64,000 bases of DNA from a virus: IMG/VR virus record IMGVR_UViG_3300033802_000252, positions 13,891-77,890 of that record; one strand, 5' to 3'. Both the position numbers and the translations under genes were made by a program. Below, piece after piece: positions 34,418 to 53,795 of this stretch. Position 1 is the first letter of the stretch. Every line of letters starts with the position of its first letter. The notes beneath the pieces were generated by a model that was not told the origin of the DNA, did no database searches, and saw nothing but the letters and a program-made list of their open reading frames with translations.

Positions 34418-34963
34418 ATGTCTCAAAATCCTATCTTAGATCGCATTTTGAAAGAAGAGAAGGCAGTCAAGCGTATCATTGCTAACACAATTTTGACACG
34501 TAACATCAAGCAATCAAGCTATCTTGACATTGACGATATCTATCAAGACATCCTCGAATATACGCTCGACTATGACAGAGCATCTAAACGCTTTAAAGAC
34601 ATTGACAAATACTTTTACGGCTCGATCAAAATGCTTACAATTGACTTTATACTAAAAGAGCAGAGACGGCTTCATCGCTTCCACATGTCTGCAATCGGTC
34701 ATACTACCAAAGATAAGAGCGGCAACCGCAAATCCATCGTTGGATACGAGCATCATAAACGTTTATCACACCCGACATTTACGCACATATCTGACACAAT
34801 GATGTCGATCAAAATGACTCTTAAAAATAGCGATTATCAAATCTTTAAACTTTACCTACAGGGTTACACAATGCAAGAGATAGCAAAAAAAGTCAGTTTG
34901 TCATCCGTCCAGTATCGCCTTAACAAAATTAAATTACAAGTCGCCCAAATCCTTAATGACTAA
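34418..34963 (+). CDS. Sigma-70 family (ECF/SigH-like) sigma factor-like protein
   Basis: Region 2-like DIDDIYQD; region 4 IFKLYLQGYTMQEIAKKVSLSSVQYRLNKIK. Confidence 0.65.
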   Translation: MSQNPILDRILKEEKAVKRIIANTILTRNIKQSSYLDIDDIYQDILEYTLDYDRASKRFKDIDKYFYGSIKMLTIDFILKEQRRLHRFHMSAIGHTTKDKSGNRKSIVGYEHHKRLSHPTFTHISDTMMSIKMTLKNSDYQIFKLYLQGYTMQEIAKKVSLSSVQYRLNKIKLQVAQILND

Positions 34964-35051
34964 ATTTTACAGTCGCTATGATATTAAGTCATAGCGACAG
35001 TATTTTTTTGTTATTTTTTTATTGTGTTTTTTTTTATTTTTCCTCATTTCA

Positions 35052-35067
35052 TATCGATATATATAAC
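35052..35067 (+). promoter_or_regulatory. TATCGATATA promoter-like motif
   Basis: TATCGATATA-TATAAC, 43 nt before ATG 35095. Confidence 0.7.
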
Positions 35068-35094
35068 AAGATTGCAATAAGGAGGTTATACATA

Positions 35095-35598
35095 ATGTCT
35101 AATACTATTCCCTATACTCGTTTTCATGATATTTCATTCTTTTTATCTGATCGAGTACATGTTAACAACCTGGAAACAGCTGCAATCAAGCATGGAGGTG
35201 CAACAAAAAATCTTTTGACAGGCCAAGCTTGGTCAAACATCGCTAAAACGGATTATATAGCACTCAATAACAGTGAAAATAAAATATCGCTGTTTGTACC
35301 AGATACAACCAACATTGATACTCAAAACACAAACAAACAACAGGAAATACTTAACAATATCCTGCCAAGAATAAAAGAAAAATATAACAGATATAATATA
35401 TCAACCGCCATTGGGACGTGGTACAGTAGCGACTTGCAAAGGGTTGTATATGACAACCTAATCATTGTAACGGTTACTTTAACAACAGTATCAATAGCTG
35501 ACATTCATGAATTCATCAAAATGGCAAAGTACATAAAACGTGAAATGTCGCAAGAAGGCGTATCAATTATGATCAATGACTCTCTGGCTATAGTCTAA
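35095..35598 (+). CDS. Hypothetical protein
   Basis: ATG behind AAGGAGG; the ORF-track N-terminal extension is likely spurious. Confidence 0.65.
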   Translation: MSNTIPYTRFHDISFFLSDRVHVNNLETAAIKHGGATKNLLTGQAWSNIAKTDYIALNNSENKISLFVPDTTNIDTQNTNKQQEILNNILPRIKEKYNRYNISTAIGTWYSSDLQRVVYDNLIIVTVTLTTVSIADIHEFIKMAKYIKREMSQEGVSIMINDSLAIV

Positions 35599-35650
35599 CA
35601 GACTATAGCCAATATTTTTTTTTGTTTCTTTTTTATTTTTTCTATTCTCG

Positions 35651-35666
35651 TATCGATATATATTAT
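35651..35666 (+). promoter_or_regulatory. TATCGATATA promoter-like motif
   Basis: TATCGATATA-TATTAT. Confidence 0.7.
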
Positions 35667-35700
35667 GAAAATAAAATTTATGTAACAGGAGGTAATACAT

Positions 35701-35967
35701 ATGCAACAAAAATACACGGATGAGCAGATCAATCAAATCGTTTCTGTAGTCGCGAAGGGTTGGAGGCAATCGTATTTTCTGCGTCAACTGTTTGCTACAG
35801 GCACACTCGCATTTCGTTCGTTTGCTGCAAACGCAACTACTAATTATAACGGGAATCGCAAATCATTTTATAACATGTTGTCTCGTCTTGCTGATACAGG
35901 TGTAAAATATCAAATTACACTGGGCAAACGTGGTGGCATGTGGTCTGCTAAGGTTGTCCTGTTGTAA
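35701..35967 (+). CDS. Hypothetical protein
   Basis: AGGAGG RBS; followed by terminator hairpin. Confidence 0.65.
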   Translation: MQQKYTDEQINQIVSVVAKGWRQSYFLRQLFATGTLAFRSFAANATTNYNGNRKSFYNMLSRLADTGVKYQITLGKRGGMWSAKVVLL

Positions 35968-35975
35968 CATCCTAT

Positions 35976-36017
35976 TCCTCACGGTGCAGGTTAATCTGCG
36001 CCGTGAGGAATTTTTTT
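35976..36017 (+). terminator. Rho-independent terminator
   Basis: ttcctcacggtgcag...ctgcgccgtgaggaa + T tract. Confidence 0.75.
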
Positions 36018-36047
36018 GTTTTTTTGTTGTTATATTTTAAGACATAG

Positions 36048-36063
36048 TATCGATATATAATAT
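36048..36063 (+). promoter_or_regulatory. TATCGATATA promoter-like motif
   Basis: TATCGATATA-TAATAT. Confidence 0.7.
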
Positions 36064-36118
36064 AGATAAAATGTATAACAACGAGTCATGAGATAATCAC
36101 TAGACACATAAGGGGAAG

Positions 36119-36472
36119 GTGATAACAATGCATTCAAAATCAATCATTATTGACATTCGCCCAGTCGCTAAACGTTACTACGATCAAGAGAGAGAGCTGA
36201 CATTCGACGAAACAATACGTAAATATAAGAAGGATATTATCAATATTGTTACCCAGGAAGTTAAGAAGCCTGTTTTATTTGACAAGGATATAACAAGCAA
36301 GACTAAAATAAAATTGAACGTTAAGGATCGAGAATTGATCATTACTTATGAATGGGACGAGCTATCAAACATTAACACTTGGTTAAACAGTATGAATAAA
36401 AACCTTGCAATTATATGTAATCATCTATGCTCAAAATCGTTTAACTGTTTTTTTAAAAACGTAGATTTTTAA
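36119..36472 (+). CDS. Hypothetical protein
   Basis: ORF between motif and terminator. Confidence 0.6.
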   Translation: MITMHSKSIIIDIRPVAKRYYDQERELTFDETIRKYKKDIINIVTQEVKKPVLFDKDITSKTKIKLNVKDRELIITYEWDELSNINTWLNSMNKNLAIICNHLCSKSFNCFFKNVDF

Positions 36473-36631
36473 TGCATAATGCCTTGTGATTGATCACGTT
36501 TCAGTCACAAGGCATTTTTTTTTGTTTTTATGTAACAATAATAAAATAAGGTGAGGATGTAAAAATAAAATATTTACAAAAGCATATAATTATGATAGCA
36601 TTAAAAATAAATTAACAGCAGGAGGTTTAGC

Positions 36632-36811
36632 ATGCTTGAATATGACTACCTTTTCTCTGTCCGATACATAAACGGGAGTCAAGAATATCATGTTATTACT
36701 GCAAATAATACAGTTAATGCATACAACAAGCTTTTTAAGCTTGTGGATGTTGATAGTATCCAGACCATAACAACCGTTGAAAAGGAATCATATTTATACA
36801 GTAATTCATAA
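36632..36811 (+). CDS. Small hypothetical protein (not in ORF track)
   Basis: AGGAGG RBS, MLEYDYLFSVRY..., followed by terminator. Confidence 0.55.
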   Translation: MLEYDYLFSVRYINGSQEYHVITANNTVNAYNKLFKLVDVDSIQTITTVEKESYLYSNS

Positions 36812-36898
36812 CATAAATTAAGTCTTATTTAACCCATAACAGATCAATCGTCTGTTATGGGTTATTTTTTTTGTTTATTGTTAAATAGTCGTTTCTTA

Positions 36899-36914
36899 TA
36901 TCGATATATGTTAT
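36899..36914 (+). promoter_or_regulatory. TATCGATATA promoter-like motif
   Basis: TATCGATATA-TGTTAT. Confidence 0.7.
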
Positions 36915-36941
36915 AGAGGATTACAGAAGGGAAGTGATATA

Positions 36942-37247
36942 ATGTCCACTCCAAGGTTAACAGAACAGCAACTGCTTCAAGTGCTGCCGATCTTATCAAG
37001 AAACCTTCATAATATCTATGTAACAGAACATGCTGAACAGCGCATGAATGAACGTAATATTACATATGACGATGTTTTAACAGCACTTCATAAGCCTATG
37101 CAGCTTGTCGATGTTCGATACGACGAAGTTTTTAAGGGTTACAAATATAAAATAACAGGAGTGGATAAAAACAAGGAAGTTGTAGTTGCAATTGATGGTG
37201 TAAAGCGTCACATACATATTGTAACAGTTATTAATAAACTGCTATAA
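36942..37247 (+). CDS. DUF4258-like (RelE/BrnT-fold) protein
   Basis: TEHAEQRMNERNITYDDV...HIVTV motif. Confidence 0.65.
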   Translation: MSTPRLTEQQLLQVLPILSRNLHNIYVTEHAEQRMNERNITYDDVLTALHKPMQLVDVRYDEVFKGYKYKITGVDKNKEVVVAIDGVKRHIHIVTVINKLL

Positions 37248-37354
37248 TAAGTACAATTGAAGATTGACGTTTTGTAGTTGATGACAACATAAAATTGATA
37301 GACTTATATGTTAAATTAAATGTGGTCAAATACGAATAACAAAGGAGTGATTAA

Positions 37355-37519
37355 ATGAATCATACTGGTACACTTTGCGTTAAATGCGGCCATAGAGGGT
37401 TTACCAAAATTCAAAAACCATATGACAGCGTGCATATAACAGCACTGGAGTGTAACAATTGCAAATCAATCATCTATCCTCATGAATCAATGGTGATTAT
37501 TCAAACAAACAAAGAATAG
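37355..37519 (+). CDS. Small Zn-ribbon protein (not in ORF track)
   Basis: CVKC...CNNC, AGGAG RBS. Confidence 0.55.
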   Translation: MNHTGTLCVKCGHRGFTKIQKPYDSVHITALECNNCKSIIYPHESMVIIQTNKE

Positions 37520-37575
37520 GCGGTAACAAATTAATCATGTTGCCGTCTGTTCCTTTTTTATTTTTAAATAGCAGA

Positions 37576-37585
37576 TATCGATATA
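37576..37585 (+). promoter_or_regulatory. TATCGATATA motif (variant downstream hexamer)
   Basis: TATCGATATA after terminator. Confidence 0.6.
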
Positions 37586-37702
37586 ATATCTAGATGATAT
37601 ATTAGGAGGAGGCGACACTAAACAGCGCATTAAGCCATGAGCGTTAGACCGCTTTATATGCGGTCTAGGTTGCGATATAATCCACTTATAGGAGGTAATC
37701 AC

Positions 37703-38140
37703 ATGCAACTAACAGACAAGTTATATTACAACGGTTTAACCTTTTACCATGTAGGTAATACAAGCGACAACGATCGTATTTACGAGTCATTGGACGAATT
37801 GATACATTACACAATAACAACAGCACCAGCAGACTATGACGGTGTTTTAATTGCTGTTGTTGACGAGTCTTTTAGAGAGTCGGAGAACGATGACATGATA
37901 CGTTATTTTGACAGCGAAACAGGAAAGGAAGAAACAATAGATGATATAACGGTAATAGAAAAATTAGAAAGCGAACTAACAGAAAGGTTTAACAGTTGCA
38001 CTAATAAAGAACTGGTTTTATTCTCTTACAATGGAATAAGCATAACTAACCCGTTTTTATCTGAATGCATGCGCTATGCTGTATATCCACGATATTATGG
38101 AGTTGACAATATTAATAAAGCAATTGCAGCATTATCATAA
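37703..38140 (+). CDS. Hypothetical acidic protein
   Basis: ATG behind AGGAGG. Confidence 0.6.
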   Translation: MQLTDKLYYNGLTFYHVGNTSDNDRIYESLDELIHYTITTAPADYDGVLIAVVDESFRESENDDMIRYFDSETGKEETIDDITVIEKLESELTERFNSCTNKELVLFSYNGISITNPFLSECMRYAVYPRYYGVDNINKAIAALS

Positions 38141-38146
38141 AGCGGT

Positions 38147-38162
38147 TAAAAGCAGGATTTTA
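38147..38162. repeat. TAAAA-N6-TTTTA junction site
   Basis: TAAAA GCAGGA TTTTA just after stop 38140. Confidence 0.55.
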
Positions 38163-38196
38163 ACACGAATAAAAAATAGAACAGATGACAGACAAG

Positions 38197-38292
38197 ACAT
38201 TATTGACGCACTTGACAGAGGGGAAGACGTAAACGGTTGGGAAGACGGTGCAGGAAATACGATTTATGTCTAATAAATGATCATGCCCAGGT
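38197..38292 (+). repeat. 96-bp direct repeat, copy 1
   Basis: Identical to 39388-39483. Confidence 0.9.
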
Positions 38293-38347
38293 GAGGATAG
38301 ACAATAGTAAAGAAGTAGAGCGCAATTAAAAAGGAGTTGTAGCAAAA

Positions 38348-38551
38348 ATGAAACTTATAAAAGGCAATCAGTATAATTACGTTTCTATTGCCGGCAATAT
38401 TCCAGTTATATTTATTGCGGAAGAAAAAGACTTCATAGAACATCATTGCAATTATTGCAATAAAAAAATTAGGCATATTTATTTTTTCGAAGATGATCGA
38501 AAATCAACGTATGCTTTCGGTAGCGAATGTATCAAAAAGATTATTCGTTAA
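38348..38551 (+). CDS. Small Zn-binding protein
   Basis: CNYC..H..FGSEC motif, AGGAG RBS. Confidence 0.6.
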   Translation: MKLIKGNQYNYVSIAGNIPVIFIAEEKDFIEHHCNYCNKKIRHIYFFEDDRKSTYAFGSECIKKIIR

Positions 38552-38894
38552 AGATTGAAACAACTTTAACAGTTAAAGACACGCTAGAAACCGCCAAACG
38601 TTACGTTTTAACATTAGTCCAGCAGGAACAAGAACAAGAGCAAGAAACAGAAACTGCATAAAAAATAAATATAACAGTCTACAAACGAAAGTTAATTTGT
38701 TTGTAGACTGTTAAACAGGAGGTTATATAACAAAAATGGGAATCACTTTAACAATCGCTAATATTATGTTTGTAATATCTTTAATAAACGTTTTCGTTGT
38801 TATTGGCTTAAACGTCACTAAAATTTGCGGACTATGAAGAAATTGAACGTTCCACAATATAACTATCCCGAAACATAACAGGAGTTGAAAAATA

Positions 38895-39347
38895 ATGCTA
38901 AAATGGAAAAATCGTAAAGCTAGAGTATCGTATCATAAGGAATGGGAAAGTAAAGGCAAAAATCCATTTTTTATTGATGTTAGCGCAGAAGTATCCAAGA
39001 AAGACAAATATCATTATGTAACTCCTAATTGGGATGGAACAGTAACAACATTATGGAATCATGAATTGTCTTTTCAACGTATGCCGGATGAATTTTGGAA
39101 TATTGACGAATGGATGATCGATTTAACACCTGTTCCCTTTGAATTATGGAAAGATGCAATAAATGCAGCAAAAAAACAATTAACATTTTATCATCACAGT
39201 CACTACGCACACAAGCGATTAGAGGAGGTTTTAAGCGATTTAGTAAAATATCCGTCAATGTCTCCACAAAGAGAAAAATTAATCAATATGTCGGCACATG
39301 ATATAATTAGAAAGTTTTATGATCCTGAGTATGTAGATATACATTAA
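38895..39347 (+). CDS. Hypothetical protein
   Basis: AGGAG RBS. Confidence 0.6.
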   Translation: MLKWKNRKARVSYHKEWESKGKNPFFIDVSAEVSKKDKYHYVTPNWDGTVTTLWNHELSFQRMPDEFWNIDEWMIDLTPVPFELWKDAINAAKKQLTFYHHSHYAHKRLEEVLSDLVKYPSMSPQREKLINMSAHDIIRKFYDPEYVDIH

Positions 39348-39387
39348 CAGCATAACAGGGAAGGTTTATCCTTCTCTTAAAAAACAA

Positions 39388-39483
39388 ACATTATTGACGC
39401 ACTTGACAGAGGGGAAGACGTAAACGGTTGGGAAGACGGTGCAGGAAATACGATTTATGTCTAATAAATGATCATGCCCAGGT
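39388..39483 (+). repeat. 96-bp direct repeat, copy 2
   Basis: Identical to 38197-38292. Confidence 0.9.
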
Positions 39484-39644
39484 TTCGTACCTGGGCAATA
39501 TATTTATGTGTAAAAAAGGAGTGATACCTATAAAAATCATCGGTGTACTTTTGATCCTTGCTATTGTCTTTTATCCTTTAATCATTCGATTCCCTTATTT
39601 TTCTGACGATAAATAATAAAATATTATTAATATAATACGTTTCA

Positions 39645-39660
39645 TATCGATATATATTAT
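39645..39660 (+). promoter_or_regulatory. TATCGATATA promoter-like motif
   Basis: TATCGATATA-TATTAT. Confidence 0.7.
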
Positions 39661-39693
39661 AGGGATAACTTTATAACACTGGAGGAATAAACA

Positions 39694-40326
39694 ATGACCG
39701 TCTCTGTTAATGAAACGCTTGATTTTGTATCCGACTTGTTAGGCGAAGCAATTTTTTCGGTCGATTCAAAACACTACAAAGATTTGACCGATGAACAAAA
39801 GGATCAAGTCAAGCAAACTTTTTTCCGTATGCTTGATGCCGAAAATATCAACGTTACAAGAATATTGATTGAACAAGCTGCTTCTATCTTTGTCAATTCT
39901 CCACTGGATTCACTTCTGCAGGAATACAAAAATCTTAAAAGTGAATTTTATCCTGCGCTTCAAAGTATTCAACCAGGACAGAAAATCACTATCGTTAAAT
40001 TTTCTGAATTTGGCTTCCCAATTCATTTTCAAACAACAGTTCACAGTATAACAATCAAACCATACGCACAGTATGAAGAAACACTTTATATTCTCCATAG
40101 ACCAAAACGCAAACGATCATTATACGGAACAAGAATTTGCCCTTATGAATCATTTTTTGTTTATGATGGTTGGATTGATATTGACATGGACAATATTATG
40201 CATAACACGTCCAAAACGGATTCTGCCACTATTAAAACAACAAGATATGTCAGTTTTAATCGTGGTTTTCTTCATGATGTTTTATCCATCATTGACAAAG
40301 AGCCTCTTTACAGATATAAAATATAA
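39694..40326 (+). CDS. Hypothetical protein
   Basis: GGAGG RBS. Confidence 0.65.
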   Translation: MTVSVNETLDFVSDLLGEAIFSVDSKHYKDLTDEQKDQVKQTFFRMLDAENINVTRILIEQAASIFVNSPLDSLLQEYKNLKSEFYPALQSIQPGQKITIVKFSEFGFPIHFQTTVHSITIKPYAQYEETLYILHRPKRKRSLYGTRICPYESFFVYDGWIDIDMDNIMHNTSKTDSATIKTTRYVSFNRGFLHDVLSIIDKEPLYRYKI

Positions 40327-40347
40327 TAACACGATTAAAAGGAGGGA

Positions 40348-40668
40348 ATGTACATGACTTTGTATACACTACTGGACAGAACTGCGATTAAAACGGCGTT
40401 GAGTGCATATCTTAATGCTGAACAACAACGCGTAGCCGTTTTAGATGACCGGCAAATTCAGATGTTATTTTCCAAAGATCAAAATGAAGAAGCTAGGAAA
40501 TTAATTGATCTGCGATATCCTGAAGCCCGCAAAGTTAAAGTAAGAGCAATTGAGCTTATTAAGGTAATGACACAAAACATTGAGGAATGGAAAGGAGTTG
40601 ATCCAGAGGATGTATATTACAGTGTAGTTCAATTTAACAAACTTGTAGAACTTGCTAAACAAATATGA
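40348..40668 (+). CDS. Hypothetical protein
   Basis: AGGAGG RBS. Confidence 0.6.
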   Translation: MYMTLYTLLDRTAIKTALSAYLNAEQQRVAVLDDRQIQMLFSKDQNEEARKLIDLRYPEARKVKVRAIELIKVMTQNIEEWKGVDPEDVYYSVVQFNKLVELAKQI

Positions 40669-40716
40669 CTATCAATGTTATAATCATACATATATAACCT
40701 GGATAGGAGGGATACC

Positions 40717-40917
40717 ATGTCTAAACTAAAGGTGATTAAATCACATGTGACGTATAACCATGAAACGCTGCCCGATGGCAAATATCGTTTGTCCAAGGTT
40801 ATCAAGGAGTATGATAAAGATCAATACCAACAAATGATTGATGATACATTTAAGTTGATTCGGGGTGAGATTTCAGAAAGTAAACTTTATCAAGAGTGGA
40901 AACGGAGTGAAAAATAA
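40717..40917 (+). CDS. Small hypothetical protein
   Basis: AGGAGG RBS. Confidence 0.6.
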   Translation: MSKLKVIKSHVTYNHETLPDGKYRLSKVIKEYDKDQYQQMIDDTFKLIRGEISESKLYQEWKRSEK

Positions 40918-40998
40918 TTCTATCTTTTTCAAGTGCATAAAGAGTCAATAAATTTATGCACTTTATAAAGGGTAGAATCGTTATTATTTATCTTCTCA

Positions 40999-41014
40999 TA
41001 TCGATATATACTAT
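40999..41014 (+). promoter_or_regulatory. TATCGATATA promoter-like motif
   Basis: TATCGATATA-TACTAT. Confidence 0.7.
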
Positions 41015-41055
41015 GAAAAACTTCGTCTATAGAGTAAATTTAAACAAAGGAGTGA

Positions 41056-41376
41056 ATGCGTATGCTAAAAACGAAAATCAAGCTTGTAGAAGAAGGAAAG
41101 AGTCGAATCTTTGCTGATTGGAGTCGGCACGCAGGTGTTACGAAGGAGCAATTTATCGAGGGTTTGAAGTGGGTCTGTTCTGATCCGTGTGACGGATCGA
41201 CTGGCGGACATCCTGGGAGATTGACAAGGGAGCTTGGCTGCCACCCTGAGCGCGGTCTAGTCAAAATAAAGCGTCAATATGACGAGACTGGCGGAGTTGT
41301 ATTTTACGAGATCGAGACAGGGCAGCTATGGAGCAAATTAGGCACTGCTTCTATTAGCGCACGAGACAAAATATGA
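41056..41376 (+). CDS. Hypothetical protein
   Basis: AGGAG RBS; higher GC than neighbours. Confidence 0.6.
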   Translation: MRMLKTKIKLVEEGKSRIFADWSRHAGVTKEQFIEGLKWVCSDPCDGSTGGHPGRLTRELGCHPERGLVKIKRQYDETGGVVFYEIETGQLWSKLGTASISARDKI

Positions 41377-41747
41377 GAAAGCGCACCATGAGGTGCGCCT
41401 TAGCCCCGACAGTTCGGGGAGCAACGATCCGAAAAAGGTTGTAAGTTAATGATTAACTATGAACCAAACGGATCACCCCTGCTAATGCAAGGAATAACAA
41501 ATTTATTACAATCCACGCACTGCAAGGAGTGCGACAACCTACAAACCTATCGTACTCCTTGGCTACAAAATTGTCAAGTAAAGGAGTAGATTTTAATGGG
41601 CAAAACTGTGATACAGAGCAAATAGGGTTGTCGCTCACATTCTCCTTTTTACTCATTGTTCAAGCGCATAACATATGAGTTGTGCGCTTGCTAGAGTGAG
41701 TAAAAAAAATTTTATTTCTTTATTTTTTATTATTTTTGCCCATCTTA

Positions 41748-41763
41748 TATCGATATATATAAT
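41748..41763 (+). promoter_or_regulatory. TATCGATATA promoter-like motif
   Basis: TATCGATATA-TATAAT. Confidence 0.72.
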
Positions 41764-41789
41764 AACAAGGCATTTAGGAGGGGAAGCGA

Positions 41790-42965: not shown

Positions 42966-42998
42966 GCAGAGCCGATCTGCCTAATCTTGTTTTCTGAA

Positions 42999-45234: not shown

Positions 45235-45585
45235 ATGAAGATACAAGATATCGGTAATTTAGACATGAACAATATGATTTTTAAATTAAGCGACAATAGT
45301 ATAACCGCAAGGCAAAACAGTAAAACAGTTGCAGTTATAAATGACGTTAGAAGGGTCAAGGGGTTGCCTTTTAGGGATAGAGTCGATCTGAATATGAAGT
45401 TCAAAGGGAAGCTGAATCAAATTGCTGATGATTATTTTTATGTTTCTTCAGATAATAAATTTTACAGTTTTATCAGTCAAAGTTACTACGAACTTGGTAA
45501 TAAAGAGACTATTAACAGTATTGAAGAAAAGATTAAGAAATTAAATGAATATGGTGTTAACATTATTTTCGCATATATTAATTAA
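45235..45585 (+). CDS. Hypothetical protein
   Basis: RBS AGGGGG. Confidence 0.6.
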   Translation: MKIQDIGNLDMNNMIFKLSDNSITARQNSKTVAVINDVRRVKGLPFRDRVDLNMKFKGKLNQIADDYFYVSSDNKFYSFISQSYYELGNKETINSIEEKIKKLNEYGVNIIFAYIN

Positions 45586-45593
45586 TAAGTTAT

Positions 45594-45637
45594 TAAAAGT
45601 CGCCGTAAACCCTAGCTTTAGCTATGGGGAGTGTCAA
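45594..45637 (+). mobile_element. 44-bp collapsed IS200/IS605 mini-element
   Basis: TTAT|taaaagtcgccgtaaaccctagctttagctatggggagtgTCAA. Confidence 0.75.
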
Positions 45638-45653
45638 AATAGGAGGAGTGAGC

Positions 45654-46841: not shown

Positions 46842-46865
46842 TTAATGATTGTTTTAATGCCTACA

Positions 46866-46875
46866 TATCGATATA
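46866..46875 (+). promoter_or_regulatory. TATCGATATA motif embedded in a hairpin
   Basis: Inside inverted repeat 46852-46894. Confidence 0.6.
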
Positions 46876-47049
46876 TGGTATGTAGGCATTAAAAATAATG
46901 ATTTAAAAGAGATGATTTTTACGAATAATGATTTTTTGAAGAACTAACATTTTTGTGTTATAAACATGGACTATGGATTGAAGGAAAGGAAATGAAAGCA
47001 ATAACTAGCAATAATCAAATTGTAGCTACAATTTGGAATATGATTGTGA

Positions 47050-47649
47050 TTGTGGTGGATTATATGCAGATATAGTATGATAGAAGAATACACAGACAAA
47101 AAGGAGAGAAAATATAGAATGTGGTTGAATTTTCATCGGAGAATCAATCAAGGCAAAGTTTATGATGAGCCACAATTGGTTGTAATTCCGATTGATCCTC
47201 ATCGAAGAAATTATGATTTTGAAGTTGTCTCTGGTTCATTCTGGGATATTAAAGGTAATGAATATCTTTCTAAAGATCAAGCGTTGATTAAAGGAGTAAA
47301 GGAAAGCGATATTTTGTTTGAAGAAGATGTACTTGATGAGCATGTGTGTTTGGCTTATAGATATGAGAAGAGTTATTCAGATAAAGTAAATCATGCGAAT
47401 GCTAAAAAGGCAGGGTTTGGTGTAATTAAAATGATTAAAGGAGACCAGACAGGAACTGAATACATGTATTGCTTATATCAGACTATACGTGCATTGAATA
47501 TTCTTATTTATGGTTACTTAACACATGGTTTTGTTGATCTCAAATTACTAAACAAAATTAAGACCGACAAGAAGTTGCAGAATGAACTATCATTTATTCT
47601 CGGTAATAATCAAGATGTTTATAGTAGCATTATGAACTATGGAAAATGA
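47050..47649 (+). CDS. Hypothetical protein (true start probably ATG 47119)
   Basis: AAGGAG RBS before MWLNF. Confidence 0.55.
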   Translation: MWWIICRYSMIEEYTDKKERKYRMWLNFHRRINQGKVYDEPQLVVIPIDPHRRNYDFEVVSGSFWDIKGNEYLSKDQALIKGVKESDILFEEDVLDEHVCLAYRYEKSYSDKVNHANAKKAGFGVIKMIKGDQTGTEYMYCLYQTIRALNILIYGYLTHGFVDLKLLNKIKTDKKLQNELSFILGNNQDVYSSIMNYGK

Positions 47650-47681
47650 TTTTTATTTTGTCGTTATTTTTAAGTATGTGA

Positions 47682-47697
47682 TATCGATATATAAGAT
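47682..47697 (+). promoter_or_regulatory. TATCGATATA promoter-like motif
   Basis: TATCGATATA-TAAGAT. Confidence 0.7.
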
Positions 47698-47728
47698 GAG
47701 TTCAAAATATGACTTGGAGGTATCTTAT

Positions 47729-48079
47729 ATGAACAACAATCAAACGACCGCACATGCAAGATATGAAGCACATGTTAAAGAATCTTTACTGGCTGGAAAA
47801 CCAGTCGAGTATAGATTGAAAGACTTTTTACCAAAGGATAATAAAAGCAAGACAAAACGATCACGACCAAAAACAAAGTATGAAAAAATGGTGCTTGAAG
47901 CATTTGAAGAAGGCAAAATAATGTTTCCCAAAATGCACGAGGATGTGACTATTAGACACGCTTATATTAAAAGTACAATCATGCACTGGATGTCAGAGTG
48001 TGAATCCATTGACGAAGTGAAAGAACTATACAACACTTATAAAAGAATTACATATAACACACCAGTATTCGAGTATTAA
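47729..48079 (+). CDS. Hypothetical protein
   Basis: ATG behind GGAGG. Confidence 0.6.
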   Translation: MNNNQTTAHARYEAHVKESLLAGKPVEYRLKDFLPKDNKSKTKRSRPKTKYEKMVLEAFEEGKIMFPKMHEDVTIRHAYIKSTIMHWMSECESIDEVKELYNTYKRITYNTPVFEY

Positions 48080-48106
48080 TGTTAAGGGAAGGTTTTATAC
48101 TTCCCT

Positions 48107-48122
48107 TAAAATAAATCTTTTA
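48107..48122. repeat. TAAAA-N6-TTTTA junction site
   Basis: TAAAA TAAATC TTTTA between terminator and RBS. Confidence 0.6.
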
Positions 48123-48143
48123 AAAAGAAATGGAGGTTGTGAT

Positions 48144-48320
48144 ATGAAAGACGTTTATATTCAAGAGTGTAATTCTTGTGGAGCAGAATTTCCAGTCCAA
48201 TACACAAAAGGCGGTTATAATTATATAGGAGAAACTTGTGATTGTGAAGATTCTTTTTCTCCACGTTGGGATTCTCCTAGTATTTCAGAGTGGGAGCAAC
48301 AACAGAGCAAGAGCCAATAA
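48144..48320 (+). CDS. Small Cys-rich protein bounded by junction sites (not in ORF track)
   Basis: GGAGG RBS; CNSC...CDC; stop TAA begins TAAAA-CAAGTC-ATTTA. Confidence 0.6.
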   Translation: MKDVYIQECNSCGAEFPVQYTKGGYNYIGETCDCEDSFSPRWDSPSISEWEQQQSKSQ

Positions 48321-48566
48321 AACAAGTCATTTAAGGAGTTGAATATCATTGGCTAAAGAAGAATGGAAATCTCAAAGTTTAGAGGAAATTATTGAGGAAT
48401 TTGATCGAAAACATGGTAAAATTGATGTGTCTTTATATTGGGAGGGTTGGCGCAAAATAACAGCAGAAGATTTAAAAGATTATCAAGGGAGATATTAAAT
48501 TTTTTTATATTTTCCCTATTTTCTTGATTCTCAAATTATATATATAATGAGAGGAGGATTAAGAAA

Positions 48567-48818
48567 ATGAGAAAAAGATTAAGCGTAGCAGAAGCAATTG
48601 CTAATGTACTTGGTTAGGATATTTCCGATGTGAAAGAAAACAGATATCAATATGGCAGGACATCTAAGCCAGTATTTACGGCAGGTGATCATTATTATTG
48701 TGCAGATGATGTTCCAGCAAAATTTTATGGTGTTGAAAATCGGTGGGAGTGGGAGAAGGTAGAGCATCCAATAAATAATAAAAACGGATGGATTGTATGG
48801 AGAGCAAACATGAAATAA
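48567..48818 (+). pseudogene. Small gene with in-frame TAG
   Basis: MRKRLSVAEAIANVLG*DISDVKENRY...; TAG at 48615. Confidence 0.6.
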
Positions 48819-49086
48819 AAAAGGTGAATTTTAAGGGGTTTTATTATAATTAAGACGTTGACATAAGAATATTTTAAACTTTGGAGTGATTTCATGTATC
48901 AATATATGCCTAAGTGGAAAGAGACAAACAAAGAAACTTATATAAAAATGTTGGAGTCAAGAATAGAAGGGATTGAAAGAAAGAGGGTAAAATCAGTTAG
49001 TGATTCAAAAAGATTAGAGGGGTTAAAGCGAGAACTTGATCAGATAAAAAAATAATTTTATTCGGTCATTATTTTTTATTGTGCCG

Positions 49087-49102
49087 TATCGATATATATA
49101 AT
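49087..49102 (+). promoter_or_regulatory. TATCGATATA promoter-like motif
   Basis: TATCGATATA-TATAAT. Confidence 0.72.
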
Positions 49103-49180
49103 GGAGGTGAAAATAAGAATAAAATATATATTGAAACCTAAAAATAAAAGTGTATAATAAAACTAAAATAATACTAAGGA

Positions 49181-50251
49181 GTGAATTTAATGTCAAAAAT
49201 TGATTTGGGACAAAAATTTGAAGAAGTTATGAGACAGCTCGAGGAACTTGAAGAAAAGAAAGTAGATGTTTTGAAGAAACCAAGAGATATTGGAATTAGA
49301 GATAATAGCTTACATATTGAAGGACTTGGGCTTGTTGATTTTACAAAGACTGGTTTACAGACGTTTTGTGCCAAGTTGGATCTTCCATCCTCTTATATGT
49401 TCAAATTGATGGACAAGCAGGACAAGAGTTTGCGAGAAATTGAAAGAGATCAAGAAGTGTTCAAAATGAATATTCAAAGAGGTCTTGAAACATTGAGACC
49501 TGATACGGATATCTTTTTTAGAACATACAATGAGGGAGACAGACATATCATTAGAGGGGTGTTCAGTGACCGATATAATGTAGTGGACAATTTGCCACTC
49601 CTGGGAGAGATTCGAAACTATGATTTTAGCCAACTTAAAACTGAACACTTTAATGTAACAAGCGATTATTTGGATGTTCGCTTCACGATGCCTCATTTGA
49701 AGCGGTCGATTGGCAAATTGTCAGAACATGAAGTTAGATTTGGAGTGTCTGATGATATTGTTTTTCCTGCAATTCACCTTAGAAATTCAGAAGTCGGTCG
49801 TAGTAAAATTTCTATTCAATTCATTATTTATCGCCTGGTTTGCACAAATGGATTAATTAATCAACGTGATCAATATCGAATCGTAAATAAAAAACATGTT
49901 GGCGATTATGATTTGTCTGAAGTAAATAATCGCATTGCTGACATTGTGGGAAAGACTCCAGATATGTTTGAAGCATACATTGATACCATGATTAATTCAA
50001 AAAGCGAAAAAGTGGAGGATGCGGAAGAGATTATTTTGGGTTTAAATAAGCGACAAGGAATCACAAAACGAATGACTGAAACAGTATTGGATAATTGGAA
50101 AAGCGAGCAGCGAAGCGAAGCAACAAAGCATGGAATTATTAGTGCGATAACTGCAGGTGCTAGAGATTGGGAGCGAAAGAAGAATGACTTCACTGGTCGC
50201 TTGGCGCTTGAAGAAATCGCTGGAGAAATGCTTTTTGCAAAGAGTCTTTGA
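49181..50251 (+). CDS. DUF932/DUF945-family protein
   Basis: RGVFSDRY...DN, LRNSEVG, YRLVCTNG motifs. Confidence 0.75.
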   Translation: MNLMSKIDLGQKFEEVMRQLEELEEKKVDVLKKPRDIGIRDNSLHIEGLGLVDFTKTGLQTFCAKLDLPSSYMFKLMDKQDKSLREIERDQEVFKMNIQRGLETLRPDTDIFFRTYNEGDRHIIRGVFSDRYNVVDNLPLLGEIRNYDFSQLKTEHFNVTSDYLDVRFTMPHLKRSIGKLSEHEVRFGVSDDIVFPAIHLRNSEVGRSKISIQFIIYRLVCTNGLINQRDQYRIVNKKHVGDYDLSEVNNRIADIVGKTPDMFEAYIDTMINSKSEKVEDAEEIILGLNKRQGITKRMTETVLDNWKSEQRSEATKHGIISAITAGARDWERKKNDFTGRLALEEIAGEMLFAKSL

Positions 50252-50317
50252 TGCTATAATCAGGGGAGAGGAAAACTCTTCCCTGATTCATACATATTAT
50301 TATTTTTTGATGTGTAA

Positions 50318-50333
50318 TATCGATATATATTAT
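50318..50333 (+). promoter_or_regulatory. TATCGATATA promoter-like motif
   Basis: TATCGATATA-TATTAT. Confidence 0.7.
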
Positions 50334-50386
50334 GAGTGAGAAATTCAATAAAATGTGAGTTCAAGATATAAGGTGGTGAAAAAACA

Positions 50387-50572
50387 ATGGGTGACTTTCG
50401 TAAGGAATTTCTTGAAATGAGAAAGGACATCATTAAGGAAACAGCCGCAGAAATTGAATAAGTTAATTCTGAAATTGAAAAACTGTTCACAAAGCGGAGA
50501 GAGTGTGTCAGAATTATCATTGAAAGTATGGAAGAAATCAGACGCATTGAAGAAGAAAAAGTCAATAATTAA
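50387..50572 (+). pseudogene. Small coiled-coil gene with in-frame TAA
   Basis: MGDFRKEF...AEIE*VNSEIEKLF...; TAA at 50459. Confidence 0.5.
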
Positions 50573-50757
50573 TAAGTGGTAAAACAATAGTAGTGGAGGA
50601 AAAGTCTGGTGCTATTGTCGGAACTTCGCTTAGAGGCGTAAGGACTGGTGTTGAATACGGTGATATAAAAATAATGGAAAATCAAGTGGAAAGAGCCTGT
50701 AAAGAAAATGTAACAATTATCAGCGAAGAAGAATTTTGGAGGATTTACGACAAGAAT

Positions 50758-50773
50758 TAAAAATGACATTTTA
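50758..50773. repeat. TAAAA-N6-TTTTA junction site
   Basis: TAAAA ATGACA TTTTA before RBS. Confidence 0.6.
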
Positions 50774-51076
50774 ATGGGAGTTGATAAGATGAATAAAGCA
50801 ATCTGGAAATACACATTGTTACCACAAACAAAGCAGGAAATGATTTTACCATTGAATTCAAAAATACTGTCAGTGAAAGTGCAGCATGAAGAAATTGTTT
50901 TATATGCACTTGTTGATCCAGATGAAACAAGTATTGAAACTGTTGATATAATTATTTTAGGAACTGGTCATAAAATAGCAGATGAATCAATTCGGGATTA
51001 TGTTTTTCTTGACACAGTTAAAATGAACAATGGACATTTAATGTTCCATGTGTTTTATAGGCAATATGACTTTTGA
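50774..51076 (+). CDS. Conserved phage protein bounded by junction sites
   Basis: IWKY.L...LYALVD...GTGH...HVF motif; flanked by sites at 50758 and 51077. Confidence 0.65.
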   Translation: MGVDKMNKAIWKYTLLPQTKQEMILPLNSKILSVKVQHEEIVLYALVDPDETSIETVDIIILGTGHKIADESIRDYVFLDTVKMNNGHLMFHVFYRQYDF

Positions 51077-51111
51077 TAAATGTGGTATTTTAACGGAAAG
51101 GAGATAAAACC

Positions 51112-51282
51112 ATGTTATCTGAATTAAAAGTGTTTAAGATTGGTCAGTATGATAACTTTTCAGTTAATGGGATTTTTGAATACGATGATGAAACATATCT
51201 TATTATTCAAATATTAAAAGTAGAAACATTTAATTATACTGAAAAAATAGAAGTGACGGCACTTGTTACAAAAATAAAATGA
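51112..51282 (+). CDS. Small protein bounded by junction sites (not in ORF track)
   Basis: AAGGAG RBS; sites at 51077 and 51275. Confidence 0.5.
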   Translation: MLSELKVFKIGQYDNFSVNGIFEYDDETYLIIQILKVETFNYTEKIEVTALVTKIK

Positions 51283-51290
51283 CTGTTTTA
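51275..51290. repeat. TAAAA-N6-TTTTA junction site
   Basis: TAAAA TGACTG TTTTA containing the stop codon. Confidence 0.6.
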
Positions 51291-51376
51291 ACATGATTTA
51301 GCATCTTAAAAATAATTATGGAGAATACGTCATTATCCCAAGGAAAATAAATTATATAAAAAAAGGAGAAGTTAAA

Positions 51377-52447
51377 ATGAAAATTATCGTTAATACCAAA
51401 GAAATCCAAACAGTACTTAAAAATTTACTGAAAATTACATCTAATAAATCTAGCAATCCTATGTTAAGTAATATCAAATTAACAGTAACAGATAAAGTTG
51501 AATTAACGACTACGGATTTTACTGTAACAGCGAATATTAAGCTGAAAGATGTTCAAATTATTGAGCCTGGATCAATTGTAATAACTAAAGACACGATAAA
51601 ACTTATTTCTAAATTAACTGATAACAGAATGATTATAACAGATCATGAAGTCAATTCCGGTAATCGTAACGTAAAATACACTGGATTTGATGCAAAGTTA
51701 TATCCAATGCATGAAAATAAAAATTATAACATCCACGCCTTTACATTGAGTAAAGATAAAATGTTTGATGTTCAAAGCATTACATACGCCTGTGGGGATT
51801 TAAACGTCAATCCAACTATGAGCGCATTAAATATTAGGGGTATAATGGTAAGTGCTTGTGATAGGCATAGATTAGCTATTAAAATGTTGGAATATAACAA
51901 CTATACAAAAGACTTAAATATTCCATCGTATGCGATAGATTATGTAATTACATGTACAGATAAACAATATAATGGCGACTATGCTTTTTATGTTTCGGAT
52001 GATGATAAATATATCAAAATAATTTTTGAAAATATAACGTTTGAGGTTCGTTTAATTGACGGCGTATATCCTGATACGAAAAAAATTATTCCGCAATATT
52101 TCAAAACGGAAGCAAGGGTAAATAAAGATGAAATATTTGAAGAATTAAAATTATTAAGGGATGTAACAGATAAAAGAAAATTAGTTCAAATTGATGTAAC
52201 AGCAGATAAAATTAAACTTTTAGCAAAAACAGGGGATAAGCAAAACATTTTGATAAGTGAATTAAATGCAATTACAACAGGAGATGATATTTTTATCGGT
52301 GCAAATATTAACTATATCCTAGATGCATTAAAAAATAATAATAACGAATATGTAACATTCCGATTTCCTGGTAAAAATAGTCCATTTATGATTGATGATG
52401 ATACATTAATTTTACCGTATCGCATTAATCGAACTGATGTCGCTTAA
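51377..52447 (+). CDS. dnaN: DNA polymerase III beta sliding clamp homolog
   Basis: 356 aa; ACDRHRLA, RLIDGVYPD..KIIP, NINYILDAL, LILPYR. Confidence 0.85.
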   Translation: MKIIVNTKEIQTVLKNLLKITSNKSSNPMLSNIKLTVTDKVELTTTDFTVTANIKLKDVQIIEPGSIVITKDTIKLISKLTDNRMIITDHEVNSGNRNVKYTGFDAKLYPMHENKNYNIHAFTLSKDKMFDVQSITYACGDLNVNPTMSALNIRGIMVSACDRHRLAIKMLEYNNYTKDLNIPSYAIDYVITCTDKQYNGDYAFYVSDDDKYIKIIFENITFEVRLIDGVYPDTKKIIPQYFKTEARVNKDEIFEELKLLRDVTDKRKLVQIDVTADKIKLLAKTGDKQNILISELNAITTGDDIFIGANINYILDALKNNNNEYVTFRFPGKNSPFMIDDDTLILPYRINRTDVA

Positions 52448-52516
52448 CATAACAGCAAAGACAGGATAGCTTTAACAGTTATCCTGTCTTATTATAAATA
52501 ACAGGAGTGATTAAAA

Positions 52517-52771
52517 ATGACTGAATCCAAAGAACAAATTTTGAAGGACATTAAAGAAAATATTTGTAATGATTTTTTGAATGCTCATGATCCTTCGGTG
52601 GGTATTTATAGAGCAAGTAAAATTGATGATTGGGTTATAGAAGAAATAAATGAATCTGAAGGGATTAAAGTTGTTTCTTATACTTCAAATTCAGTATTAT
52701 TAGATTGTGACGTTTGTAAAGTTGAAGTATATTATTACTTAGATAGATGGGAAGCCCGAATTTTTGAATAA
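52517..52771 (+). CDS. Hypothetical protein
   Basis: AGGAG RBS. Confidence 0.6.
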   Translation: MTESKEQILKDIKENICNDFLNAHDPSVGIYRASKIDDWVIEEINESEGIKVVSYTSNSVLLDCDVCKVEVYYYLDRWEARIFE

Positions 52772-52784
52772 AAAAGTATTTTAA

Positions 52785-52985
52785 TTGCTTATCGAGAATG
52801 AAGCGATAACAATGAAATTTTGCTTGATTTGTGATGAAATTATTGAAGACGGGAAAGAATTTGTAAAAGTGGACGATCATTATTTTGGTAGTGATGAGTG
52901 TTGTGACAAATATTTTTTGGATATCAGGCAAAGGGAAGATGATGAGTGGGAAGAGTGGCTAGTGTTTGGGAGGGTGAATAATTAA
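52785..52985 (+). CDS. Small Zn-finger protein
   Basis: CLIC...GSDECC. Confidence 0.45.
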   Translation: MLIENEAITMKFCLICDEIIEDGKEFVKVDDHYFGSDECCDKYFLDIRQREDDEWEEWLVFGRVNN

Positions 52986-53020
52986 AAAATGGATATAATC
53001 TTTTTACGGAGGGTGAATTT

Positions 53021-53749
53021 ATGGCTAAAGCTATAGCACGTTGCACATGTACTGAATGTGGTGATACATTTACTAAGGAGAGAACTTTTCGTAGTCGTAG
53101 TGAGGCTGATTCGTGGGAAAAGTGGGCGGAAAGTAATTACACTCAATGCTCAAAATGCTATGGTAAGAAGCAGCGAGAAAAAGAATTGGCTCTACCTCCT
53201 ACAATTACTATCTCTCTTTTGCCATTTCATGCAGATAAGCCTGTATTGCTTGTATGGAGTGGTAATACAATGGACGTTAAGGATCAAATTAAAGAAATGG
53301 GTTATGTGTGGGATGAACCTCCTTCGAGTGGTGTATTAGGAGCGTTGGAATGGAGAACTCCAAGAAAGACATGGTACAAGATGATCACATTGGACAAGAT
53401 GCAAGAGTCAATGGATCAAGTAAAGACAATTGAGAATGTAGTCATTAAAAATGAAGTGCGTGACATTGATCTAATTACACTTAAGCAATTAATGTCTGAA
53501 AAAGCAAAGTACCAGGCACAAATAGATGAAGAGGTTAAGGCGCTTGGAGATAGACCAAAGAAGCCCGAATGTTATCCAGTAGGTAAATGGAATGGTCGTA
53601 TCTATGGAAAATCTGGTGCTTATCGGATATATGTTGATAATGTTGAGCAATGGATATCTGATGACGAAGTTAAACTCATTCAAGAATATCAAAAGAAACG
53701 AGACGAGTATAATAAAAAAGTTGATGAAATAAAGAAAAAATATCACTAA
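53021..53749 (+). CDS. Zn-finger-containing hypothetical protein
   Basis: CTECG...CSKC; GGAGG RBS. Confidence 0.65.
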   Translation: MAKAIARCTCTECGDTFTKERTFRSRSEADSWEKWAESNYTQCSKCYGKKQREKELALPPTITISLLPFHADKPVLLVWSGNTMDVKDQIKEMGYVWDEPPSSGVLGALEWRTPRKTWYKMITLDKMQESMDQVKTIENVVIKNEVRDIDLITLKQLMSEKAKYQAQIDEEVKALGDRPKKPECYPVGKWNGRIYGKSGAYRIYVDNVEQWISDDEVKLIQEYQKKRDEYNKKVDEIKKKYH

Positions 53750-53779
53750 TTTATTATTTTGTTATTTTCGTTACTTTCG

Positions 53780-53795
53780 TATCGATATATATTAT
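53780..53795 (+). promoter_or_regulatory. TATCGATATA promoter-like motif
   Basis: TATCGATATA-TATTAT. Confidence 0.7.

Follow-up and report, generated by a model that had tools for sequence, protein, structure and literature searches.

We found that a 10-mer, TATCGATATA, recurs 15 times in a 64,000-nucleotide stretch of phage DNA (the window; bases 13891-77890 of one 148,616-bp phage contig, IMG/VR record IMGVR_UViG_3300033802_000252), beginning directly behind an open reading frame (ORF 34418-34963) whose 181-aa product is sigma-like. Each copy is the core of a 39-bp element; the elements form a discrete class and sit at promoter positions without the -35 hexamer of the host sigma factor, sigma-A. 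The reading that we favor, and to which we give an even chance of being correct, is that the 15 elements are the cognate promoters of the adjacent phage sigma factor, which is of the extracytoplasmic function (ECF) type, and that they drive a 32-gene accessory module.

Fifteen copies of a rigid bipartite element

An earlier note on this DNA had listed 15 copies of the 10-mer, all of which were matched exactly on the plus strand at positions 35052 to 53780, where a dinucleotide-preserving shuffle of the window would yield 0.23. When both strands were counted, 17 matches were found, a number that none of 100 shuffles reached; the two on the minus strand are palindromic overlaps of the copies at 36899 and 41748. 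No further copy was detected anywhere in the 148,616-bp genome, and the statement of the earlier note that none precedes 35 kb thus extends to the whole contig: no copy lies upstream of the sigma gene, and all fall within 48.9-67.7 kb of the genome as one module of about 19 kb.

Aligned without gaps, the 15 copies revealed a rigid bipartite element of 39 bp that has TATCGATATA as its core and the consensus TTrTTATTTTT, a 5-nt gap, and TcTCA-TATCGATATA-TAttAT-RR. Block 1, TTrTTATTTTT, occupies offsets -21 to -11 relative to the core, with T or A in 12 to 15 of the 15 copies at each position, so that the T-rich tract noticed earlier proved to be a block of fixed position, distinct from the U-tails of terminators. 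The gap between the blocks carries little information. Block 2 is composed of T-c-T-C-A, the invariant TATCGATATA, a hexamer (T in 14, A in 12, n, n, A in 13, and T in 14 of the 15 copies) that agrees with the -10-like hexamer described in the earlier note, and a purine in 15/15 copies followed by a purine in 14/15 and a. Ten consecutive core positions are invariant in 15/15 copies, while the putative -10 hexamer varies. Downstream of the core, the T (14/15) to R (15/15) step at offsets 15/16 is the only conserved pyrimidine-purine step. The core ATATCGATAT is a contiguous palindrome of 8-10 bp, as had been proposed, and conservation around it is asymmetric and spans all 39 bp. The gap and flanks have diverged, and the copies are therefore not recent duplicates. 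The elements are as follows.

35031-35069, plus strand: element 1, core TATCGATATA at 35052, behind the terminator of the sigma gene; gene start 35095; 43.5 bits
35630-35668, plus strand: element 2, core at 35651; gene start 35701; 47.5 bits
36027-36065, plus strand: element 3, core at 36048; gene start 36119/36128; 36.6 bits
36878-36916, plus strand: element 4, core at 36899; hexamer TGTTAT, without the A at position 2; gene start 36942 (DUF4258)
37555-37593, plus strand: element 5, core at 37576; downstream hexamer ATATCT; precedes a Pistol ribozyme and gene 37703-38140
39624-39662, plus strand: element 6, core at 39645; block 1 weak; gene start 39694
40978-41016, plus strand: element 7, core at 40999; gene start 41056/41062
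41727-41765, plus strand: element 8, core at 41748; gene start 41790 (391 aa, phrog_2319)
43065-43103, plus strand: element 9, core at 43086; next genes at 43192, 43369 (LPD25), and 43860 (DUF7007)
45173-45211, plus strand: element 10, core at 45194; gene start 45235, then a DUF3560 protein
46845-46883, plus strand: element 11, core at 46866; the weakest at 25 bits, without block 1; 253-nt leader
47661-47699, plus strand: element 12, core at 47682; gene start 47729
49066-49104, plus strand: element 13, core at 49087; then a sigma-A-like TTGAAA-16-TATAAT at 49131-49158; gene 49190 (DUF932)
50297-50335, plus strand: element 14, core at 50318; then a 24-codon ORF, DUF7352, and a DnaN-like clamp
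53759-53797, plus strand: element 15, core at 53780; gene start 53821 (GmrSD_N/DUF262 protein)

A weight matrix built over the 39 positions separated these members, which score 25-47 bits, from everything else on either strand of the genome, where the next-best site scores 8.5 bits, the level of shuffled sequence; the elements are therefore an all-or-none class without degenerate copies. The same genome-wide scan found no copy, even a degenerate one, near the replication genes, the gene of a 527-aa candidate late regulator, or mrpR. Two of the copies have peculiar surroundings. The copy at 46866 lies inside a perfect hairpin with a 12-bp stem (AATGCCTACATA ... TATGTAGGCATT, positions 46855-46890) and may be a special case, for example a regulatory RNA or an inactive copy. 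Behind the copy at 50318 (50387-50570), the 24-codon ORF hits a stop and plausible coding sequence goes on in the same frame, which may represent a gene that has been interrupted or two micro-ORFs.

The elements have the placement of promoters and lack the hallmarks of sigma-A

The position, orientation, and fixed bipartite geometry of the elements are, on the evidence of the sequence, those of a promoter. In a gene map guided by ribosome-binding sites (RBSs), all 15 copies were found to be intergenic (probability by chance about 2e-9 where 26% of the sequence is intergenic) and to point the same way as the 32 genes on the plus strand between 35.0 and 54.8 kb, as the earlier note had it. They lie upstream of these genes, and a start codon with a strong RBS follows the end of the hexamer by 25-55 nt in 11/15 copies. 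The short distance to the start codon claimed earlier was likewise recovered for the majority, with 41-63 nt from motif start to start codon in nine copies, whereas four copies (37576, 46866, 49087, and 50318) have long leaders. Less general is the layout of terminator followed by motif that had been described for the units; a strong intrinsic terminator stands before each of the first five copies but before only one or two of the others (about 6-7 of the 15 units in all).

The long leader of the copy at 37576 is accounted for by a ribozyme:

37604-37674, plus strand: Pistol self-cleaving ribozyme RF02679 (Rfam, 42.8 bits against a gathering threshold of 34.5) in the leader of gene 37703-38140

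This ribozyme begins 19 nt after the core, and transcription is therefore required to start between 37586 and 37604. Its P1 stem is poorly paired in the cmscan alignment. Pistol RNAs are associated with phages and are common in Firmicutes (PMC4604425).

When the elements were examined for sigma-A determinants, the best TTGACA match 16-18 bp before TAttAT averaged 3.2 of six positions (maximum 4/6; background 2.6), and only the leading TT of the -35 hexamer was shared. The earlier observation that a canonical -35 is absent was thus borne out, with no copy reaching 5/6. The positions of a TG extension (offsets 7-8) are occupied by an invariant AT. Neither a -35 hexamer nor a TG extension being present, the elements do not appear from their sequence to be ordinary sigma-A promoters. 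In addition, were TAttAT the -10 box, the copies at 36899, 37576, and 46866 would lack the essential A-11, and these copies keep the core and head intact units. A sigma-D promoter (TAAA-N15-GCCGATAT) was not found either: only CGATAT is common to both, the -35 spot reads TTAT, and the box starts with AT, not GC. In the literature, no paper was found that ties TATCGATA to a phage promoter.

ORF 34418-34963 probably encodes a divergent ECF-type sigma factor

The gene directly upstream of element 1 was analyzed by profile, homology, and structure-based methods.

34418-34963, plus strand: 181-aa divergent ECF-type sigma factor (sigma2 + sigma4), recognized by hidden Markov models (HMMs), homologues, and predicted structure; proposed reader of the elements

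Plain Pfam and PHROGs searches returned no match for this ORF. The NCBIfam profile TIGR02937 (sigma70-ECF) aligned residues 29-170 to profile positions 25-156 of 165 with an E-value of 9.7e-6 and a score of 25.3 bits, under the curated cut-off of 42.9. An exhaustive HMMER search recovered about 10 homologues among 1.84 billion representatives. One of them, the full-length homologue P0011 (E = 5e-4), itself scores above the Pfam thresholds for Sigma70_r2 (52.9 bits) and Sigma70_r4_2. At the same positions P0002 (62% identity) and P0009 gave weak Sigma70_r2 matches (E of about 0.015); weak Sigma70_r4_2 and GerE matches were also seen in homologues, and P0004 is named 'sigma24 family protein' in one source. 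Conserved DDIYQD and YFYG..K...ID.ILKEQRR blocks fall at the position of regions 2.1-2.4. A profile that included P0011 matched sigma-H (3mzy, 8.5e-6) and the Mycobacterium tuberculosis ECF factor SigH over both domains.

An AlphaFold (AF2) model made from the alignment had a mean predicted local distance difference test (pLDDT) score of 78.6, and its top 19 or so Foldseek matches in the PDB were all ECF-type sigma factors, with probabilities of 0.8-1.0. Residues 123-181, modeled with a pLDDT of 85-91, superpose on sigma4 of M. tuberculosis SigD (Z 9.0, root-mean-square deviation 1.6 A, 59 residues) and also on region 4 of SigW, SigR, SigK, and sigma-E, consistent with the helix-turn-helix (HTH) domain of sigma region 4. 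Between the sigma domains, the model tentatively places what may be a beta-hairpin insert (residues ~91-111, pLDDT ~65). Alignment and model together indicate that the ORF encodes a sigma factor of ECF type that is very divergent and has two domains (sigma2-sigma4). The sigma-like character assigned in the earlier note thus stands on TIGR02937, P0011, and AF2/Foldseek, and only such sensitive methods reveal it. Phage-encoded sigma factors are widespread and often very divergent (PMC9429907).

The sigma operon has a putative control region of its own

The sigma gene is the last of a small operon in which it follows a 64-aa ORF and a 70-aa ORF, and about 1.1 kb of non-coding DNA lies upstream of this operon.

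33258-33271, no strand assigned: near-perfect LexA/SOS box CGAACAGTTGTTCG, upstream of the sigma operon
33532-33651, no strand assigned: three 18-bp palindromes TATGAACAnnnATTCATA (at 33533, 33579, and 33635), candidate operator array
33828-34324, plus strand: two small ORFs (64 aa and 70 aa) in the same operon as sigma, which they precede
34972-34998, plus strand: intrinsic terminator at the end of the sigma operon; the core of element 1 follows 54 nt later

The three TATGAACAnnnATTCATA palindromes are spaced by 46 and 56 bp and are found nowhere else in the genome. By their sequence they look like operators for a repressor of the sigma operon, and the upstream region as a whole looks like a dedicated switch region for it. 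The TATGAACAnnnATTCATA half-sites resemble those of the LexA box with GTTC changed to ATTC. Two more LexA boxes, both perfect (CGAAC-N4-GTTCG), are present at 58138-58151 before a MazF gene and at 62438-62451 just after mrpR. No promoter of the sigma operon could be identified with confidence.

Other repeats were noticed in this region. Two repeats of about 85 nt (33993-34077 and 34295-34379; 74% identical) lie between the ORFs of the sigma operon, each consisting of a hairpin with arms of about 28 nt followed by ACACTCTAAAAAA; they may be RNA processing or attenuation elements. Farther upstream, a non-coding, G/T-rich segment of about 430 bp (32820-33250) contains short, iteron-like direct repeats (e.g., TTTTTGTTGTGTT... 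and GGCTTTAGGAT), for which a function as an origin or in packaging is conceivable.

Proposed regulatory circuit

We infer from position and architecture how this sigma factor would read the elements, where transcription would start, when it would occur, and what role the module would have. The elements would be read poorly or not at all by the host sigma-A holoenzyme, and the phage 181-aa sigma with host core RNA polymerase (RNAP) would read them instead. In the lysogen, LexA, a phage repressor, or both would silence the sigma operon from the LexA box and the three palindromes (33.26-33.65 kb). Upon SOS induction or fresh infection the sigma factor would be made and would then fire 15 insulated units (32 genes, 35.0-54.8 kb) that may constitute an accessory, establishment, or counter-defence module. 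Within each element, the equivalent of a -35 would reside in the T block TTrTTATTTTT and that of a -10 inside the invariant TATCGATATA, and transcription would start 16 nt past the first base of the core, where the T|R step is nearly invariant.

This reading is favored for several reasons: (i) the first element lies directly behind the terminator of the sigma gene, with none upstream; (ii) a sigma-A -35 is missing from the elements; (iii) they form a discrete class with almost no variation, as promoters that are phage-specific or of ECF type usually do; (iv) a CGA-containing core in an AT-rich setting resembles the -10 boxes of alternative sigma factors; and (v) canonical sigma-70-family spacing from the T block puts the -10 in the core and the start on the T|R step. 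Placement of the -10 in the core rather than in TAttAT is preferred because the three copies without A-11 still head intact units. That the sigma operon appears to have its own control region was also counted in favor. The proximity of gene and sites is suggestive of a link and is not proof of it. Of the two branches offered in the earlier note, the one that viewed the elements as promoters of the phage sigma, similar to the ComX cin-box, has gained support from the ECF-type character of the ORF, the absence of a sigma-A -35, and the CGA core.

Several observations weigh against the assignment to this sigma factor. Its direct assignment by HMM is below threshold, and a control profile built without P0011 and P0009 detected only the C-terminal HTH, of LuxR/GerE type, and the transitive link through P0011/P0009 therefore matters. 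No relative carrying the sigma or the motif was recovered from the viral, genome, and metagenome collections searched, and the sigma has only the 10 or so homologues. In these comparisons, (i) neither the sigma nor P0005 gave a tblastn match in phages or plasmids; (ii) a related-locus search with the sigma, the sigma alignment, P0004, P0005, and the 527-aa protein found nothing in the three types of collection; (iii) a 16-mer pattern scan gave chance single matches only; (iv) a bipartite 17-base pattern gave 22 matches in a complete IMG/VR scan, all single and at chance level, and only single hits among the matches listed for the genome collection; and (v) BLAST of one full element against phages found nothing. 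Many ECF sigma factors autoregulate, but the present sigma gene has no motif copy in front of it. The conserved TAttAT-RR adjoining the core can be read as a sigma-A -10 with a purine-rich discriminator, and a sigma-A promoter with an overlapping operator is therefore possible. Finally, the 527-aa protein, which is annotated as a sigma factor, and several early proteins are alternative readers.

The phage lineage and alternative readers of the elements

In an ORF-by-ORF BLASTP comparison with SPbeta (NC_001884), the tail, head, terminase, and replication genes were found to be syntenic at 25-71% identity and homologues of YonN, YopP, YopQ, and YopR were present, while a YonO homologue was not found. 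Judged by this gene content, the phage is a large, temperate, SPbeta-like relative of Bacillus phage SPbeta. No DNA-level relative of the genome was detected among GenBank phages by megablast or blastn. Among large temperate Bacillus phages SPbeta serves as the model, and its known control runs through MrpR acting on SPBRE, arbitrium, and the YonO polymerase. The following features of the present phage bear on the alternatives.

28921-30504, minus strand: 527-aa protein in the YonO slot, PHROG family phrog_5767 'sigma factor' (8e-66); alternative candidate reader
30682-30710, plus strand: canonical sigma-A promoter TTGACG-17-TATAAT that heads the plus-strand arm; the phage uses standard promoters elsewhere
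60905-61882, plus strand: true MrpR (YopR) homologue with both MrpR domains (Pfam, BLASTP), 7 kb past the last motif copy; candidate reader under the operator hypothesis

The other branch of the earlier note was that the elements are sigma-A promoters, with TAttAT as the -10, a weak -35, and T-rich sequence upstream, in which a dimeric phage repressor, either the MrpR homologue or a different protein, binds the invariant palindromic ATATCGATAT of the spacer/extended -10 region as its operator, in functional analogy to SPBRE. In SPbeta, MrpR binds a conserved element inside some 10 early promoters (PMC10516654). The SPBRE promoters of SPbeta (64.1-129.3 kb) have a TAGACA-like -35 (always ..ACA), a 17-bp spacer AATACAAATAATATGTA, and TATAAT, and SPBRE thus lies between -35 and -10, the same relative position as the core here. 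This parallel within one phage lineage of a multi-copy element that overlaps early promoters and is co-oriented with genes, together with the presence of a true MrpR homologue, the 8-10 bp palindrome of the core, and a T-A-n-n-A-T profile that fits a sigma-A -10, speaks for such an operator. The sequences are unrelated, however: the SPBRE region rebuilt from target promoters identified by chromatin affinity purification sequencing (ChAP-seq), ACAAATACAAAtAATATGTATA, has no likeness to the motif and is, as its sequence suggests, a core site in the style of tyrosine recombinases (inverted arms ATACA-N7-TGTAT) within a sigma-A promoter, whereas the palindrome here is contiguous and its conservation asymmetric over 39 bp. 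SPBRE promoters retain the 'ACA' of the -35, which the elements here do not. SPBRE is a repressor site dispersed across about 65 kb over replication, late-polymerase, and arbitrium promoters; the element here is confined to 19 kb, in one module without degenerate copies, behind a sigma gene that SPbeta does not have. It makes little sense for a master repressor to act on accessory genes alone, and the sigma operon is preceded by an operator-like array of its own, separate and unique. With the MrpR gene far downstream as well, this branch has been weakened, and we consider it unlikely. The sequence TATCGATA occurs in SPbeta in six copies that are unrelated to its SPBRE promoters; no SPBRE-like element was found in the genome of the present phage, nor any comparably conserved intergenic word outside the module.

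Another phage factor could read the elements, either the 527-aa protein or an early activator that, in the style of T4 MotA/AsiA appropriation, brings sigma-A RNAP to -35-less promoters; candidates for the latter are the 221-aa, 64-aa, and 70-aa ORFs and the YopP-like protein. The phrog_5767 family is common to SPbeta-like phages of other Firmicutes (Sundance, Geobacillus E3, phiCD211, and enterococcal and staphylococcal relatives), the 527-aa gene is served by a sigma-A promoter of its own in the divergent region, and several early ORFs have no assignable function. Yet this gene is the first of the late operon on the minus strand, where SPbeta has YonO, and no element lies on that strand; its product has no Pfam or NCBIfam sigma domain, and nothing ties the remaining candidate ORFs to DNA binding, which leaves such a reader improbable. 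We regard as quite improbable that the elements are plain, very strong sigma-A early promoters conserved by selection for strength or by gene conversion, as in SPO1 host takeover, T5, and T7. A TAnnAT hexamer, AT-rich upstream sequence, short units insulated by terminators, and accessory or takeover-like genes would all suit promoters of that kind; the missing -35 and TG extension do not, ten core positions are invariant in 15/15 copies while the putative -10 varies, and canonical sigma-A promoters elsewhere in the phage look normal. Very improbable, in our judgment, is a reader from the host, that is, an alternative sigma factor (sigma-D/sigma-28-like or ECF), with the phage sigma serving another purpose such as host-gene manipulation. 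The core shares CGATAT with the Bacillus subtilis sigma-D -10 box GCCGATAT and, by the geometry of the alignment, a conserved TTA falls where the sigma-D -35 TAAA would be; however, the block at that position is TTAT(TTTT) rather than TAAA, the box has AT for GC, and the 12-mer TATCGATATATA does not exceed background, with no more than 6 dispersed copies in any of 429 (28 + 401) sampled Bacillales genomes. No host regulon was thus seen among the genomes searched, which is a weak test.

Relationship to known sigma and promoter systems

The favored reading, in which the adjacent phage sigma reads the elements, has its closest precedents in three types of system. Small, divergent sigma factors of the SPO1 type redirect host core RNAP to highly conserved, phage-specific promoters that sigma-A does not use (PMC13401047). 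As proposed here, the sigma factors of SPO1, gp28 (middle) and gp33/gp34 (late), are expressed first and the regulon follows. SPO1 is a lytic myovirus, whereas the phage here is temperate and SPbeta-like; its sigma factors are not detectably related to the 181-aa protein by tblastn against phages, and its regulons are whole temporal classes rather than one accessory module. The SPO1 promoter consensus sequences, AGGAGA/TTTnTTT and CGTTAGA/GATATT, are unlike the elements here.

A second precedent is the streptococcal SigX/ComX cin-box, in which an 8-bp box of the TA-CGA-ATA type, TACGAATA, lies behind a T tract, without a -35 hexamer and near the start codon, and is read by a small alternative sigma factor (PMC6001120). 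The cin-box core TACGAATA and the core here, TATCGATA, are near-anagrams with CGA in common. They differ in that the T tract of the cin-box is at a variable distance (0-18 nt) and the spacing here is fixed, and in that the element here has an additional conserved TAttAT-RR downstream. ComX is a host competence sigma factor without detected homology to the 181-aa protein. The third is the ECF group, with which the present system shares a protein of predicted sigma2-sigma4 architecture, a bipartite promoter with a CG-containing downstream box, and a stringent, discrete regulon. For orientation, the -10 box of sigma-D is GCCGATAT and that of sigma-W is CGTATA, the B. subtilis sigma-W promoter being TGAAAC-N16-CGTATA. 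Unlike ECF systems, no AAC-type -35, no recognized anti-sigma factor, and no autoregulatory copy were found here, and the protein departs from typical ECF sigma factors by its HMM match under threshold and, with moderate confidence in the model, a predicted beta-hairpin insertion.

The gene module and other features of the phage

The 32 genes at 35.0-54.8 kb are mostly small and unannotated. Recognizable products include the DnaN-like clamp, DUF932, DUF3560, the polyvalent-protein domain LPD25, DUF4258, DUF7007, DUF7352, and the GmrSD_N/DUF262 protein, along with a weak S-adenosylmethionine-lyase-like match. Going by gene names, this content and the short, insulated units resemble an accessory, host-takeover, or counter-defence module. 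The broader claim of the earlier note, that one promoter-associated signal defines a co-regulated module, is well supported by the placement of the elements, their rigid bipartite form, the discrete weight-matrix class, and the ribozyme downstream of one copy.

The C-terminal tail of the 527-aa protein is zinc-ribbon-like, and no promoter motif to match this protein was evident in the late arm. Sequences of the form CCCCTGCCTTTAGG.ATGGGGA...GGGAGTGTCAA lie on the minus strand upstream of the 527-aa gene (30520-30640) and of another late gene (~27500-27600), and these regions look like omega-RNA/RAGATH-18-like scaffolds. Other candidate signals were set aside. A-rich words (AAAAATAAAATAT and similar) at 72-146 kb, considered as a second motif class, proved to be compositional, without conserved flanks and often inside ORFs. 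The junction palindrome TAAAA-N6-TTTTA, considered as an independent element, occurs 12 times in the window and near only 2/15 motif copies. A Spo0A-box reading (TGTCGAA) was considered and set aside, as was a methylation-site reading; ATCGAT and TCGA are by simple counts about as frequent as expected.

Implications for SPbeta-like phages

In kind, the circuit proposed here follows a known strategy of phage sigma factors; the key link between the motif and the sigma factor is drawn from proximity and architecture. A wider proposal, which we put forward as possible and rather doubtful, is that a nearly orphan lineage of ECF-like sigma factors reads a new, -35-less type of promoter (T block plus TATCGATATA) and that, in this branch of SPbeta-like phages, a switch gated by LexA and the operators has taken the place of dispersed MrpR/SPBRE control over a 32-gene counter-defence or establishment module, one transcript of which is ribozyme-processed. 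If this is true, and given the 527-aa sigma-family protein in the YonO slot, the SPbeta lineage would have swapped its whole transcription strategy at least once.

The elements mark the 32 mostly unknown genes as a probable unit of co-expression and so make it easier to look for their functions, which likely lie in host takeover or counter-defence. Were the link between sigma and elements confirmed, the two would be an orthogonal and compact pair of sigma factor and promoter, in which the sites are 39 bp of defined sequence and fall into an all-or-none class, and a very divergent sigma family would have known target sites, useful for the study of how promoter specificity evolves. The relative of SPbeta described here keeps MrpR, is without YonO and SPBRE, and has two sigma-type genes and a sharply defined candidate regulon of 15 promoters; with the link confirmed, core regulatory circuitry would have been swapped among members of one phage lineage.

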